A stretch of DNA of 8,067 nucleotides from a virus (Duplodnaviria; Heunggongvirae; Uroviricota; Caudoviricetes), in the IMG/VR virus record IMGVR_UViG_2703718825_000004; one strand, written 5' to 3'. The position numbers and the translations under genes were made by a program. The notes under the pieces were generated by a model. It worked only from the letters and a program-made list of their open reading frames with translations. It was not told the DNA's origin and did no database searches. Positions 33-4,652 of this stretch are shown here, in pieces (positions within the stretch are counted from its first letter, which is position 1; each line of letters starts with the position of its first letter).

Positions 33-188
33 TTACTCCTCAGGTTCGTAAGCTGTGAAGACAGCGACCTCCGTCTGGCCGGTTCGGATTCGTACCTCGC
101 AGAGGTCTTTCCTCGTTACCAGTGCCGTCACTATGACGGTTAAACAGATGACGATCAGGGCGATTAACATCGCCTTTTGCTGCTTCAT
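33..188 (-). CDS. hokD: Hok/Gef-family type I membrane toxin (HokD/RelF-like), 51 aa
   Basis: Minus-strand translation MKQQKAMLIALIVICLTVIVTALVTRKDLCEVRIRTGQTEVAVFTAYEPEE matches, from memory, HokD/RelF and the Hok-family pattern (one TM helix, RKDLCEV...TGQTEVAVF...YE). AAGGAG Shine-Dalgarno lies about 9 nt upstream of the ATG at 188-186. Imperfect GC-rich hairpin in the 3' region (about 3-29). Sequence identity is recalled, not searched. Confidence 0.85.
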   Translation of the reverse strand: MKQQKAMLIALIVICLTVIVTALVTRKDLCEVRIRTGQTEVAVFTAYEPEE

Positions 189-245
189 AACCTGCTTCTC
201 CTTGCCTTTCGGCGCGTAAGAGGCTAACCTACGTTTGTGAAGCAT
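33..245 (-). CDS. Mok-like in-frame upstream reading frame overlapping hok (70 aa)
   Basis: Same frame as hok, starting at ATG 245-243 (MLHKRRLASYAPKGKEKQV then MKQQ...). This resembles the MokC/HokC arrangement in which mok is an N-terminally extended frame of hok. No convincing SD before this ATG; inference. Confidence 0.4.
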   Translation of the reverse strand: MLHKRRLASYAPKGKEKQVMKQQKAMLIALIVICLTVIVTALVTRKDLCEVRIRTGQTEVAVFTAYEPEE

Positions 246-431
246 AGATTGGGCCTCAGATTAATGTTAAGCGTCTTGCAGGACGCGTAATGTTAACTGG
301 GGCTTTTCTCTGTCTGCCTTACGGTGGCATGCCCGAGGCAGACAGCCTCAAGCACCCGCAGCAATTCTACTTAACTCTCGCTTTACAGCAAACCGTTTTG
401 CCCGATATGGGAATTCCCATACGGAATGAAT

Positions 432-645: not shown

Positions 646-1209
646 TCATTGGTTCTCCCCCTGTGTCGCTTCTACTGCGATCTGACTGGCGTATTCGTTA
701 ATGGTAACGATAAGTTCTTGCTCGGCCTCATCCAGACAACTACCGATACCTCGCCTGTCCACTTCAGAAGCATCGAAATCTGCACGAAGCCTGGCGACCT
801 TCAGGATTGCGGACAACACCTCATCAGGGATTGCCGGAGAGTTGGTTGACGTTTCCGAGATTATCCGAAAATTATTGGTTGACGAACCCTTATTTTCCCG
901 AAAGTTTCCAGCCTGAAGCATGGCGGCGCGGTGACACCAGATAATCCAGCCAAGCGCCATATCCCATGCCATGTATTCTCTATCGCCATTTTTTGCTCTG
1001 CGGCGATCTACAGATTCCCCGAAACGCTTCTCCATAAATAATTCATAGGCTGCCCGTTCATCCGATACTGATGCCAGTGATGCCAGTGCAATTTTTAATG
1101 CGGTAAGCATGTTGTTTTGATCTTCATCGAGTCCGAACGGTATTTCATCCCGTGATGACTCAATTCCGGTAATCGTGTACTGTAGCCATTCTTTGGTTAA
1201 TTCAGTCAT
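646..1209 (-). CDS. Hypothetical phage protein, 187 aa, unknown function
   Basis: Intact ATG-initiated ORF. Preceded by an AT-rich region (1261-1335) and two hairpins in the 5' leader. I do not recognise the protein family. Confidence 0.6.
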   Translation of the reverse strand: MTELTKEWLQYTITGIESSRDEIPFGLDEDQNNMLTALKIALASLASVSDERAAYELFMEKRFGESVDRRRAKNGDREYMAWDMALGWIIWCHRAAMLQAGNFRENKGSSTNNFRIISETSTNSPAIPDEVLSAILKVARLRADFDASEVDRRGIGSCLDEAEQELIVTINEYASQIAVEATQGENQ

Positions 1210-1218
1210 TTTTCACTA

Positions 1219-1234
1219 CCGCCCTTTCGGGCGG
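1219..1234 (-). promoter_or_regulatory. GC-rich hairpin (CCGCCC-GAAA-GGGCGG on the minus strand) between an AGGAGA motif and the start codon of the 187-aa gene
   Basis: Perfect 6-bp stem with 4-nt loop seen directly. It sits 9 nt upstream of ATG 1209 and just downstream of an SD-like AGGAGA (1240-1235). A second hairpin GAGGG-N9-CCCTC lies at about 1246-1264. Confidence 0.3.
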
Positions 1235-1335
1235 TCTCCTGATGTTCTGAGGGTGCAGGAATCCCTCCGGTTAAGGATTTAATAAAAATCATTTCTGATT
1301 TAAATTTTCAGTGTTTAGTTGTTGGTTTATAGCCT

Positions 1336-1647
1336 TTATGCTTCGGCCTTATTTCTCAGCCATACACAAACAGGACCATCTTCGGTGTCATGTATCGAAC
1401 CGATAAACCATCCCTCACCTTCTGGTCGCTCAGGTTCCCATGCTGAAATATCAGGGCCATCTGCGTCCAGATTAAAATCATCTTCATCCATACTACGGAT
1501 AGCCCACTGAAGATTATTTTTCTCCATCCAGGCGTTAAACTCTTCCGTTGAAATATATTCCCGACCATCACAGAATTTTTCATATTCAGGATGCGTCCAG
1601 CAGCCATATTCATTACGTTCCACTGGCATTTCTTTAATTGCGCTCAT
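1336..1647 (-). CDS. Hypothetical phage protein, 103 aa, acidic
   Basis: ATG 1647-1645 overlaps the upstream gene stop (ATGA). Strong SD AAGGGGGG 4-5 nt upstream. Acidic C-terminal half (DEDDFNLDADGPD...). Family not recognised. Confidence 0.65.
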   Translation of the reverse strand: MSAIKEMPVERNEYGCWTHPEYEKFCDGREYISTEEFNAWMEKNNLQWAIRSMDEDDFNLDADGPDISAWEPERPEGEGWFIGSIHDTEDGPVCVWLRNKAEA

Positions 1648-1832
1648 TTACCCCCCTTATTTAATTTTCTACGACACTTTTTACAATCATCTGGACTTTC
1701 GAATGTATCCGGCTCACGCTCATTGCCAAAATACATCCACCCACCGCAAGTACTTGTTATTTCACCTTCAGCAAAATAATGATGCTTTTTCGCCATAAGT
1801 GGCCTTGCCCAGCCCGGATTCGTTTTACTCAC
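1644..1832 (-). CDS. Hypothetical small protein, 62 aa, GTG start, CxxC-containing
   Basis: GTG start at 1832-1830 overlaps the stop of the upstream gene (GTGA). Excellent SD AAGGAGG 6 nt upstream. Contains CKKC plus a further Cys, possibly a Zn-binding nin-region-type small protein (inference). Confidence 0.6.
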   Translation of the reverse strand: MSKTNPGWARPLMAKKHHYFAEGEITSTCGGWMYFGNEREPDTFESPDDCKKCRRKLNKGGK

Positions 1833-2185
1833 TTGTTGCCTCCTTTGCGAAGCTCTGCGACTAACTCGTCACATATGTGCGTCAAAGAGCAAAGTTTGAT
1901 TGCTGGATGTTCGCGCACCATCTCCACACCCTGCGCCCGCAATTCTGCCAGAAAAGCGTAGGGGTCAGTTTTTTCACTGTGGTACATGGCATCATAGATA
2001 ATCATTGCAGCGACACCTGCCTGTCCTGCATCTGTGACGGATATATGCTCAAGGGCTACGGCCATTGCGTGTTTCAACCTCTCATTTTCCACCTCAAGCA
2101 CCACACGATTAGCCTCCAGCTCTTCTATGCGTTTTTTTGCTGCTCCCAGCTCAACACGCAGCTCCTGATAGTTAATCTCGCTCAT
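1829..2185 (-). CDS. Hypothetical phage protein, 118 aa, N-terminal coiled-coil
   Basis: ATG 2185-2183 overlaps the upstream stop (ATGA). SD GGGAGGAAGGAGA immediately upstream. N-terminus (ELRVELGAAKKRIEELEANRVVLEVENERLKHAM) looks coiled-coil. Confidence 0.65.
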   Translation of the reverse strand: MSEINYQELRVELGAAKKRIEELEANRVVLEVENERLKHAMAVALEHISVTDAGQAGVAAMIIYDAMYHSEKTDPYAFLAELRAQGVEMVREHPAIKLCSLTHICDELVAELRKGGNK

Positions 2186-2406
2186 TCTCCTTCCTCCCGC
2201 ACTGCTGTTTTATATGCCCGAAGCACATGCGATGTTTTTCCTGACACAGTGCTTCTCAGAAAGAAAATTCCACTGGTGTTTATTACCAGATACGGGTCAG
2301 CAAGACGCAGCATATCCAGTATGTGATTATGTTTTCTTGTTTCCAGCACCGTACTGGAAATAAGCATATGTGACACGGGGCCGAAATCATGATATCTGAT
2401 TTTCAT
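2182..2406 (-). CDS. Hypothetical phage protein, 74 aa
   Basis: ATG 2406-2404 with AGGGTGA SD-like motif. First gene of a four-gene translationally coupled chain (2406 down to 1336). Confidence 0.55.
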   Translation of the reverse strand: MKIRYHDFGPVSHMLISSTVLETRKHNHILDMLRLADPYLVINTSGIFFLRSTVSGKTSHVLRAYKTAVREEGE

Positions 2407-2427: not shown

Positions 2428-3126
2428 TTACCCGTTATCTCCTGTCGTTATTTTCTGTATGACATCACGATGCTTATTAATTTCCCGCAGCGCGGCGCAT
2501 AAGCGCTCCCACTTCTGAACCTGACCTTTTGCCCGGCGCAGCTCGCGGTTAGCCACATGCAGCGATGGTAAAATCAGACCATCCGGATGCTTTCTGATGA
2601 ACGACGACTGTGACTGCACTGTGACCGCCACACTTTCAGTTTTAATTTCTTCCTGTGTTTCCGCTTCCCGGACTGGTAACGCAACACCTGCCGGCTGAGG
2701 AAAGGCTTTACCATCGGTTTCCGTTACCGATGCAGCTTTCGGCTCTGCCGGTAAATTATCGCCCGGTATGCAGTAACGATATTGACCGTCCTGATTTACG
2801 CGAATCAGACGACCTTTGCTGACAGCCATCGCCAGTGATGAATTCGCCCGGCGGGAGGTAATCCCGAACATTAACGCCAGTTCGTCAGCCGACTGAGGAC
2901 CATGCTGTTCAATCGCGTTAATCAGCATCTCTGCAGTGGTTTTTGGGGCCGCTTCAGTTGCCTCACTCGTCAGCCACCACATCGACCCCTTGTTATCAGC
3001 TTCGCCACGACGCTTCAGCTTCCAGAGTTCGGTAACAGCATCGTCACGGCTGATTTCAAGACGGGCTGCAATCTCGTGCGACGAGGCTTTTTTCAGTGCT
3101 TTCAGTGCGTCAAAAACGGTTTCCAT
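2428..3126 (-). CDS. Hypothetical phage protein, about 232 aa, with two winged-helix-like segments (possible DNA-binding)
   Basis: ORF track frame 2428..3192. The likely start is the internal ATG at 3126-3124 (METVFDALK...), preceded by GGGAGGA at 8-nt spacing. Winged-helix assignment is inference from sequence pattern only. Confidence 0.65.
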
Positions 3127-3160
3127 TAAATTTTCCTCCCGGTAAAAATTACTTCTCAAC

Positions 3161-3823
3161 TCAGACAAAACCGGCCGCCTTCCGGCGCTCATATTCCTGT
3201 TTCAGCAATTCAATTGGCGTTGGCCCTGGCGGGCGTTTGGGTGCTGCCAGTTGTCGCCGGACTGGCGGAACACTGAGGCCATTACCAACATGCTTTGCCC
3301 ATTTCGTCAGCTGCCTTTCCACAAGCCGTTTTAACTCCCCTTCGGTCATCTGGCGCTCAATCCCCTTTGAACGCATCTCGAGGCAAATGTGGTACAGCAC
3401 CGGCTGTGGCCACGGGTATTTATCACTCCCGTCGTACCGCCAGGATTCATTCCTCCAGCGACGGTATTCCTCCATCACGGCATCCACCGTCAGGCCAAAT
3501 GGATTTGCCCCGCTCTCCGAAATCAACGCCACAAACTCAGCCAGATCCGGAGGCCACGTTTCACCCGCCCGGCAGCGGTCCATGCACCGACGGCAGATCT
3601 GCCGGATTTGCTGTTCAGTCATCGCGCCAATCTGAGCAATCCAGAGTTTCGACGGCGCAGCCCCGTTCTTCTGAGTCCAGCGGTTCGAATACACCTCCCC
3701 CATAAGCTCCCACAGCTTCCAGGCCGTTTCCGTTGCTGATAAATCCGTTTTCACGTTCCCACTGTTCGCGTGCAGCCCGGATTTCCTGAACTGCCCGTGA
3801 TGCGGTGCCACCTGGTGCTGCAT
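3161..3823 (-). CDS. Lambda-P-like replication protein (DnaB helicase loader)
   Basis: Translation is co-linear with lambda P as recalled (e.g. [13 protein letters not shown] vs PSPGQFVAWCREE; [16 protein letters not shown] vs YPWKSNAHYWLVTNLYQNMR; [13 protein letters not shown] vs TDAELRRKAADEL). Start is uncertain: ATG 3823 has SD AAGGGGG but overlaps the O-like gene by 209 nt; alternative ATGs at 3703 (SD TGGGAG) and 3622 (8-nt overlap with the O-like stop). Confidence 0.7.
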
Positions 3824-4652
3824 GGCTTACCCCCTTGCTGACTGGTTTTACCTGTGCCCTGACGTGCTGCACGTGGCGGGCAAATTTCTGCTCCCACTGA
3901 ACCTGCGTGAAAACCTTCCCCTCCGCCATCCAGTAATCCCGGAATGCGGCAAGCTCAGCAGGTGTAAACTCAGGCTCAGGCAGAGCCATACCCCACACTG
4001 CTGCCCGCTGTCGAAAATCCGGCGACGGTTGCCAGACTCCAGTCATCGGAAATTTCCCGATCGGTTCGCTCAGGCCGTCCAGGTATTCAGGTTCGGCTGT
4101 CTGCAACGACGCGTCATTCAACTCACCGGTCGTAGCACTCTCGCGCATGCGCGCGTTATGTGTGGGGTTTAATTCTTTATCTGTATCTGTATCTGTCGTG
4201 ATTTGTCGTGACATATGCGTGACGCGTCGTGACTCATCGTGACAATCAGTGTTCTGCTTCCGCAGTCTTTCCCGCTCCCGCTGCGCTCTCTTGCGCTCTG
4301 CCGGGGATTTTGCGGTTTGCGAAACATTACCGTTATCCTCCTTCATCACCTGGCGTTTTTCCCATCCGGAAATAAGATCACCATCCAGAACTCGCCCCTG
4401 CATTGCATGCAAAATTGAATCAATCACGTCTTCCGTCACATCAAGCGCACTTGCTAAATCTTCCGTCGTGACATCAATGTGACCACGTAGTGACACGCCG
4501 TGACATGTCGTGACATTTCGTGACGCACTCACCAGAAGGTGGATATACACCGCCATCACTGTTGCGATTGGCTGTCCTGAGACCCTGGCAATGGTTCGCC
4601 ATTTGGGATCATTTGGCATGTCATGCCACAATCTGAGCCAGGCATTAGCCAT
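3615..4652 (-). CDS. Replication initiator (lambda-O-like / replisome organizer), about 345 aa
   Basis: Lies immediately upstream of the P-like gene. Likely start ATG 4652-4650 (MANAWLRLWHDMPNDPKWR...) with SD GAGGTGA; the ORF track starts at GTG 4658. Two clusters of GTGAC direct repeats at about 10-bp spacing lie inside the gene, as the ori iterons do in lambda O. N-terminal WLRL...ATVMAVYIHLL resembles replisome-organizer N-termini (inference). Confidence 0.7.
   Translation of the reverse strand: MANAWLRLWHDMPNDPKWRTIARVSGQPIATVMAVYIHLLVSASRNVTTCHGVSLRGHIDVTTEDLASALDVTEDVIDSILHAMQGRVLDGDLISGWEKRQVMKEDNGNVSQTAKSPAERKRAQRERERLRKQNTDCHDESRRVTHMSRQITTDTDTDKELNPTHNARMRESATTGELNDASLQTAEPEYLDGLSEPIGKFPMTGVWQPSPDFRQRAAVWGMALPEPEFTPAELAAFRDYWMAEGKVFTQVQWEQKFARHVQHVRAQVKPVSKGVSHAAPGGTASRAVQEIRAAREQWERENGFISNGNGLEAVGAYGGGVFEPLDSEERGCAVETLDCSDWRDD
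4196..4243. repeat. Iteron-like direct repeats, cluster 1 (five copies of CGTGA(C/T), about 10-bp period), putative ori core
   Basis: Seen directly: tgtCGTGAtttgtCGTGACatatgCGTGACgcgtCGTGACtcatCGTGACaatc. Flanked at 4167-4195 by an AT-rich tract that includes (TATCTG)x3, and by the palindrome CGCGCATGCGCG at 4143-4154. Confidence 0.55.
4468..4523. repeat. Iteron-like direct repeats, cluster 2 (six copies of GTGAC, 10-11-bp period)
   Basis: Seen directly: cGTGACatcaatGTGACcacgtaGTGACacgccGTGACatgtcGTGACatttcGTGACg, in the same orientation as cluster 1, within the 5' part of the O-like gene. Confidence 0.5.

Follow-up and report, generated by a model that had tools for sequence, protein, structure and literature searches.

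The question raised by this locus is whether four small genes chained by stop-start overlaps in the early region of a lambdoid prophage form a dedicated system of interacting products or a run of independently assembled genes. The genes occupy positions 1,336–2,406, on the minus strand, of an 8,067-nucleotide (nt) stretch of DNA from a Caudoviricetes virus (IMG/VR record IMGVR_UViG_2703718825_000004); this whole stretch is hereafter called the window. A first-pass annotation, made from the sequence alone, had taken the overlaps as a sign of real, stoichiometrically co-expressed products of no recognized family in a nin-like region, and had guessed from the acidity of one of them at a DNA mimic or anti-restriction-like protein. 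The explanation that we favor as a whole, and hold with good confidence, is that the four are genuine genes that do not make up a four-component system and are instead mosaic segments with separate roles, among them a probable effector encoded by g103. The lead worth following is g103, and not the string as a system. The genes, with product lengths in amino acids (aa) and isoelectric points (pI), and their overlaps are as follows.

2406..2182, minus strand: g74, ATG start, 74 aa, basic (pI 9.6), phrog_1001
2185..1829, minus strand: g118, ATG start, 118 aa, acidic, Ea22-type mosaic protein
1832..1644, minus strand: g62, GTG start, 62 aa, basic, phrog_2358
1647..1336, minus strand: g103, ATG start, 103 aa, strongly acidic, phrog_1372 (orf184 family)
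2182..2185, minus strand: g74/g118 stop-start overlap ATGA, read from the sequence; also a mosaic breakpoint
1829..1832, minus strand: g118/g62 stop-start overlap GTGA, read from the sequence
1644..1647, minus strand: g62/g103 stop-start overlap ATGA, read from the sequence; also a mosaic breakpoint

Prophage context and coding evidence

The prophage that holds the four open reading frames (ORFs) is a lambdoid one of the Rac/Qin type in Escherichia coli O26:H11, and the ORFs belong to the nin-like part of its rightward delayed-early operon. Over 1.3 kb, the sequence has 100% identity to prophages of many E. coli O26:H11 and related genomes, for instance at NC_013361.1 1482705-1484005, where the RefSeq gene order runs from int, xis, exo, dicB, a LexA-type repressor gene, cro, and ydaT through a DnaT-domain O-like gene, P, a DUF1627 gene, and four or five hypothetical genes to hokD, DUF968, rusA, DUF1133 (Q-like), tRNAs, and the lysis genes. 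The string thus lies between P/DUF1627 and hok-rusA-Q, in keeping with the nin-like placement given by the first-pass annotation, whose description of the chained ORFs and of their ATGA, GTGA, and ATGA overlaps was likewise accurate. Three of the genes have good Shine-Dalgarno sites, namely GGAGGAAGGAGA (g118), AAGGAGG (g62), and AAGGGGGG (g103), as had been claimed, and only the site of g74 (AGGGTGA) is weak. No convincing promoter or terminator was found inside the four-gene string, which fits a single transcription unit.

That the ORFs are genuine coding genes, as had also been proposed, follows from three lines of evidence. All four match PHROG profiles (E values of about 1e-24 to 1e-55), all four have full-length relatives in other genera, and the ratio of nonsynonymous to synonymous substitution rates (dN/dS) is 0.08 for g103 (median, 42 alleles) and 0.05 for g62 (single well-diverged allele), these being the two genes for which the ratio was available, as g74 and g118 had no ungapped alleles of intermediate divergence. 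The g103 family is, judging from these substitution rates, under purifying selection. Searches for a known function returned little: none of the four proteins matched an NCBIfam model or a PADLOC defense profile, a PDB sequence search gave nothing significant for any of them, a literature search by their RefSeq accessions found no paper that mentions them, and a motif search among the proteins of a published accessory-gene screen found no relatives of g62, g74, or g118.

Distribution of the genes and mosaic structure

A tblastn search of 50,697 phage genomes showed that the four families have non-overlapping phage distributions. Relatives of g103 occur in phages of Escherichia, Erwinia, Klebsiella, Yersinia, Pseudomonas, Vibrio, and Burkholderia, those of g62 in FEC19-like myoviruses, Sf11-like phages, and one Mu-like element, and those of g74 at the int-proximal end of Shiga toxin (Stx) phages, in Fels-1, and in Klebsiella prophages, while the relatives of g118 are a patchwork of segments common to Ead/Ea22/Eae proteins. 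In 41 loci taken from different bacterial species, no relative of g74, g118, or g62 lay within 4 kb of the g103 relative, and none of the other three genes was present at any of 62 loci with distant g74 relatives. Sufficient upstream sequence was present on 73 viral contigs that encode a close relative of g103; of these, 40 had none of the other three genes, 15 had all of them, and the remainder had one or two; g103 was 99–100% identical in every one of the 15 complete strings, which indicates that these belong to one recent near-clonal lineage.

The joints at which the string was assembled are visible in L216, an element that replicates with a P2-type GPA gene and in which the order is DUF1627, g74 (85% identical), a 102-aa helix-turn-helix (HTH) protein, a 75-aa g74 paralogue, g103 (85%), and a DUF551 protein. 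DNA identity between L216 and the window is 92% at 2175-2576 and 1101-1646, and the homology stops at two of the junction overlaps: it ends at about window position 2175 (the g74/g118 junction) and resumes at 1646 (the g62/g103 junction), with the stretch of g118 and g62 replaced in L216 by the genes of the HTH protein and the g74 paralogue. The second of these identical tracts extends into the downstream gene, g187, and constitutes the following block.

1101..1646, minus strand: mosaic block of g103, a 126-nt spacer with a GC hairpin, and the first ~110 nt of g187; 92% DNA identity to L216 4248-4797

This block is inherited as a unit, and window positions 1200-1650 are also 89% identical to mEp460; the N-terminal 100 aa of g187 are 85% identical to the L216 DUF551 protein (L216 4689-5219). 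By these alignments, the locus consists of at least three independent mosaic segments, namely the 3′ end of the DUF1627 gene with g74, g118 with g62, and g103 with its spacer and the 5′ end of g187.

The overlaps themselves proved uninformative as to partnership. At 76 of the 118 g103 loci, the g103 start and the stop codon of the upstream gene overlap by 4 or 8 nt, and the upstream genes belong to 31 unrelated families, with g62 in that position in only 17 loci; the overlap is therefore a generic joint and not the mark of a stoichiometric partnership, although such overlaps would be expected to couple translation whatever the neighboring gene. The reading of the string as a stoichiometrically co-expressed cassette did not withstand these comparisons, given the separate distributions, the swapped middle pair, and the variety of upstream families, and we take it as a general point that a stop-start overlap in phage accessory regions is no evidence of functional partnership. 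The four-gene string as a whole represents ordinary lambdoid mosaicism of existing uncharacterized families. It resembles the nin and exo-xis regions of lambda in that its short early-operon genes are tightly packed and often overlap, with modules exchanged at gene boundaries, and differs from the lambda nin region in that none of the four proteins matched a named nin family (NinB/Orf, NinG/Rap, NinH, NinI, or others) in Pfam or NCBIfam.

The g103 family on phages and conjugative plasmids

The product of g103 is a free-standing, strongly acidic, Trp/His-rich alpha/beta domain that matches phrog_1372 (E = 2.3e-55) and has all of the invariant residues of the family. The conserved core comprises R11, G15, W17, H19, and P20 (motif WTHP) and then W70-x-P-x2-P-x-G-x-GWFxGSIHDTEDGPVCxWLR, and between these conserved segments the alignment has a variable acidic middle. 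The first-pass annotation was right to call the protein strongly acidic (pI 4.2, net charge −16), and the property extends to the family, in which the median net charge is −14 and pI is below 5 in 96% of 139 representative domains. Comparison of the fold with solved structures found no relative, and BFVD returned only uncharacterized members of g103's own family. An exhaustive profile search yielded 925 cluster representatives; among the best 146 of these, approximately half were free-standing and the rest had varied N- or C-terminal extensions, mostly unnamed, the few with names being Lar, Rv2179c-like exonuclease, Tad2-like, and winged-helix domains.

A recurrent module, ERxRQ..EGWTxEHDD..WPW..WKPS..LVKAGALILAEIERLDR, was observed fused on either side of the g103 domain in proteins P0170, P0193, P0195, P0196, P0207, P0236, P0245, and P0269, and also forms the C-terminus of the large mosaic PHROG families 6628, 9434, and 9763.

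The range of the family extends beyond phages. The commonest neighbors of g103 relatives in species-level genomes are the F-type transfer genes TraU, TrbC, TraF, and TraN, and tblastn against PLSDB matched 2,029 plasmid records, most of them Klebsiella IncF; conjugation is predicted for 1,756. Some plasmid relatives lie inside the tra operon (traW-traU or traB-traV) and others in the finO-repA accessory segment, adjoining genes for DUF2726 and phospholipase-D nuclease proteins. As far as these sequence searches reach, members of the family are found in the early operons of phages, in P1-like plasmid prophages, and on F-type conjugative plasmids. Plasmid genes of the family include the following.

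L220 4983-5291: g103-family plasmid gene
L221 3983-4306: g103-family plasmid gene
L223 2483-2806: g103-family plasmid gene
L224 2495-2887: g103-family plasmid gene

The modest additions made by this analysis are the wide presence of the family on conjugative plasmids, mainly Klebsiella IncF, the family-wide acidity of a domain whose fold has no relative among solved structures, a corrected start for g62, and the connection of g103 to the phenotype of orf184, the sole family member with an experimental phenotype. The gene is unannotated, and it occurs in prophages of pathogenic E. coli by the hundred and in approximately 2,000 plasmid records, mostly conjugative.

A candidate role for g103

Over residues 4-103, g103 is 46% identical (BLASTP, E = 4e-34) to orf184 of phage mEp213 (AFM76385.1 / YP_007112388.1). 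The two proteins have the same length, acidity, and family motifs, and both are encoded in early accessory regions of lambdoid coliphages, although orf184 lies in the pL operon after N, whereas g103 lies in the post-replication nin-like region. In a published screen, expression of orf184 was reported to kill strain ECOR59, transposon suppressors of the killing mapped to the P4-hotspot system gop-beta-cII, and the effect was reconstituted in a lab strain; the authors' annotation gives nothing meaningful for the orf184 protein, orf184 and the anti-restriction gene ral share one accessory region, and known anti-restriction proteins often triggered cell-death systems in the screen (Silas et al., bioRxiv 10.1101/2023.04.06.535777). 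The anti-phage system gop-beta-cII protects against lambda and P1 (PMC9122126).

Because g103 is small, acidic, conserved, and found among counter-defense genes on both phages and conjugative plasmids, it could act as an effector: most likely, it would bind and neutralize a protein of the host or of a resident element when mobile DNA enters the cell, and would thereby serve as a counter-defense or host-takeover effector. The gop-beta-cII system of P4 satellites would then sense either the activity of orf184-family proteins or the protein itself, with the sensing taken from the homologue and the native target conjectural. A more specific version is that the g103/orf184 domain is a widespread and hitherto unrecognized counter-defense effector of temperate phages and F-type plasmids, acting as an acidic decoy that inactivates a DNA-targeting immune protein of the host when DNA enters, with gop-beta-cII as its guard and a fold unseen in solved structures; we put this forward as a tentative possibility. 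If the family is indeed a counter-defense factor of phages and plasmids alike, this would bear on the spread of Klebsiella plasmids and on how satellite-encoded systems sense invaders.

A first alternative, and the one that the first-pass annotation had guessed at, is that g103 counters restriction by mimicking DNA, in the manner of Ocr and ArdA. Like those proteins, g103 is small, very acidic, and carried by mobile elements, and in common with ArdA its family occurs on both phages and conjugative plasmids. The occasional fusions to Lar restriction-alleviation domains, the location of orf184 in the accessory region with ral, and the frequency with which anti-restriction proteins triggered cell-death systems in the screen also point this way. 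However, it is the aromatic/His core of g103 that is highly conserved, rather than its acidic loop, and the protein has neither sequence nor fold similarity to Ocr, ArdA, or other known mimics. The guess gains some weight from the acidity, which is family-wide, and from the homologue orf184, which triggers abortive infection and has ral in its accessory region, but finds no counterpart in the fold, and we regard the specific DNA-mimic version as rather unlikely.

A curious arrangement was observed in Rac-SA53 (L227 289-3316), where IS1 and P4-like 'cII' and 'beta' genes directly follow the g103 homologue rac22, with no gop; the juxtaposition is curious in that a g103 relative triggers the gop-beta-cII system of P4.

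The products of g118 and g62

The claim that none of the four proteins belongs to a recognized family held for Pfam, NCBIfam, and PADLOC assignments and was not quite right for g118, whose sequence features identify it as a compact Ea22-type mosaic protein outside the strict family. It matches phrog_492 (E = 7e-24) and phrog_368 (E = 4e-19), and its score against the Pfam model Ead_Ea22 (PF13935) is 18.1 bits, below the cutoff of 27, with coverage of profile positions 75-138 only. The Ea22 layout consists of a short N-terminal part, a tetramerizing coiled coil, and a phage-specific C-terminal domain (CTD) (PMC10834534, PMC7093339); the CTDs differ between phages, and that of lambda Ea22 has been solved by nuclear magnetic resonance (PMC10834534). 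The likeness to lambda Ea22 lies in a probable compact form of this layout and in the N-terminal tag, which reads MSEINYQELR in g118 and MSEINSQALR in lambda Ea22 and in gp36 of ev099 (consensus MSEINxQxLR). In sequence, the tag is all that g118 shares with lambda Ea22. Residues 2-55, the candidate for a central coiled coil, gave only weak matches to coiled-coil families, and the separate C-terminal part is related to another protein: its 65 aa are 65% identical to ev099 gp36, which is encoded at the ea22 position and has only its N-terminal 45 residues in common with lambda Ea22. No alignment was found between the C-terminal part of g118 and the lambda Ea22 CTD, and a PDB sequence search gave no match. 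The two proteins differ further in length (118 versus 182 aa) and in location, as g118 follows the replication genes in the nin-like region and does not lie between exo and xis. Since Ea22 favors lysogeny (PMC10834534, PMC7093339), a g118 oligomer would, by analogy, probably bind a host factor and bias infection toward host survival and lysogeny.

The 62-aa product of g62 belongs to phrog_2358, and an alignment of relatives from very different phages shows H18, C29, C50, and C53 to be invariant, together with G7, W8, P11, Y19, and F20. The CxxC motif remarked upon previously is accounted for by C50 and C53, and the four His and Cys residues are kept across relatives in E. coli, Salmonella, Shigella phage Sf11, FEC19, and a Klebsiella phage. 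This conservation suggests a putative His-Cys3 metal site, in which His18, Cys29, Cys50, and Cys53 would probably bind a metal. RefSeq/PGAP starts the gene at an internal ATG at 1796, giving 50 aa. The GTG at 1832 is the better start for two reasons. Ahead of the internal ATG, the longer frame encodes a GW..P motif that relatives from Salmonella, Trabulsiella, Shigella phage Sf11, a Klebsiella phage, and the virulent phage FEC19 have kept, and AAGGAGG precedes the GTG by 6 nt; the RefSeq start is probably wrong, and the GTG start of the first-pass annotation is backed by the homologues.

A fusion of g62 and g103 by frameshifting at a run of six G residues, hinted at by PHROG profile coordinates (4-63 of 146; 55-158 of 194), was considered and rejected, since the longer g103 relatives owe their length to C-terminal read-through or to other fusions, and FEC19 gp03, the long member of phrog_2358, continues at its C-terminus into unrelated sequence. 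At window 1648-1662 (minus strand), the six-G run AAGGGGGGTAAATGA, directly before the g62 stop and g103 start, is a Shine-Dalgarno-like site, and there was no evidence for frameshifting there or for a g62-g103 fusion product.

The g62 domain is small, and in both virulent and temperate phages it is encoded close to genes for replication and DNA modification, with primase, polymerase, KorB-like, and methyltransferase genes near its relatives. These neighborhoods, together with the location of the string between the replication genes and rusA/Q, constitute the case for a second alternative, in which the genes would serve the phage cycle itself, in replication, recombination, or late-gene control, with a housekeeping part such as some nin genes play in lambda. 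It is opposed by the profile searches, which assigned the four proteins to no characterized nin housekeeping family or other characterized family, by the patchy presence of the genes even among close relatives, and by the occurrence of relatives in exo-xis and pL accessory regions and on plasmids, and we consider it improbable.

Remaining alternatives and points against the proposed roles

The nuclease genes beside some plasmid homologues suggest a third alternative, in which g103 proteins are inhibitors or immunity partners of the adjoining nucleases and the phage copies are orphan inhibitors. On Klebsiella IncF plasmids and pCROD1, the homologue overlaps the stop codon of a gene for DUF2726, which has a restriction-endonuclease fold (PMC3424549, PMC3710099), by 4 nt, and a gene for a phospholipase-D-type nuclease comes after the homologue on two Enterobacter plasmids as well as on Klebsiella IncF. 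However, DUF2726 is upstream in only two of the four such plasmid loci examined and is absent from all phage and tra-operon contexts, so that the candidate pair of a DUF2726 nuclease and a g103-like inhibitor, found in only some plasmids, was rejected. The DUF2726 and phospholipase-D proteins also have N-terminal membrane or signal segments, which the g103 relatives lack; as the nucleases are apparently exported, one-to-one pairing in the cytoplasm is unlikely. We regard this explanation as highly doubtful.

Least probable, and strongly disfavored, is a dedicated multi-protein system with fixed ratios enforced by the overlaps, as the first-pass annotation had it, for although the string has three successive 4-nt overlaps with good ribosome-binding sites and is present complete in 332 of 5,426 complete E. 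coli genomes, the intact form is confined to a single near-identical lineage (g103 at 99–100%), each gene has relatives without the others, L216 has the middle pair swapped, and the overlaps are made with 31 unrelated upstream partners.

Several points weigh against the explanation that we favor, of mosaic segments with separate roles and g103 as an effector. The orf184 phenotype belongs to a homologue of 46% identity under heterologous expression, is reported in a preprint, and speaks to what senses the protein and not to what the protein does; the available portion of the screen's text, moreover, reports no counter-defense phenotype for orf184 (bioRxiv 10.1101/2023.04.06.535777). The fusions of the g103 domain to Lar (3 of 54) and Tad2 (1 of 54) are possibly read-throughs of gene calling. 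For g62, the metal site is deduced from residue conservation, and the structure models were moderate, the best having a predicted local distance difference test (pLDDT) score of 78 and the others 51-71. More generally, the roles given here to g118, g62, and g103 are ones that we infer from sequence, and the four products may still interact physically as far as comparative data go.

The g74 family

The g74 product matches phrog_1001 along its full length (E = 9e-24), and the family alignment has an invariant MKI start and conserved E22, R24, H26, and D31. Word-indexed protein searches returned few relatives for g74 (3) and for g62 (12). The order DUF1627 then g74 is common to phi24B (vb_24B_3c, equivalent to gp05, then vb_24B_2c), L216, and the window, with the phi24B relatives of both genes located in the exo-xis region. 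An obligate DUF1627-g74 pair was nevertheless rejected, for the pairing holds in E. coli Stx phages, L216, and the window and fails in the 62 distant g74 loci, where the upstream gene encodes a 188-aa family, a Rha-type protein, an ORF6N-type protein, or others.

Two minor observations concern this family. The phi24B gene vb_24B_2c (L127, phi24B 2854-3234) is annotated as encoding 126 aa, but its similarity to the g74 family starts only at an internal MKI, from which the product would be 73 aa long; to judge from this alignment, the start codon was probably placed too far upstream. In L216, two g74 paralogues occur in one string, at 3501-3725 and 4027-4254 (85% and 38% identity), the second overlapping the g103 homologue.

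Flanking features of the window

The neighbors of the string and the other features located in the window are listed below.

2428..3192, minus strand: DUF1627/winged-helix protein, upstream neighbor; Pfam DUF1627 E = 3e-78; RefSeq start at 3126
646..1209, minus strand: g187, downstream neighbor, acidic mosaic protein; phrog_14306 and phrog_660
33-245, minus strand: hok/mok toxin ORF; Pfam HOK_GEF E = 3e-23
183-357, minus strand: sok antisense RNA, adjoining hok; Rfam 114.9 bits
6804-6855, plus strand: DicF small RNA, dicB region; Rfam 76.7 bits

Residues 121-178 of the downstream neighbor g187 have 57% identity with part of the 415-aa fusion protein P0195, which also has a g103 domain.

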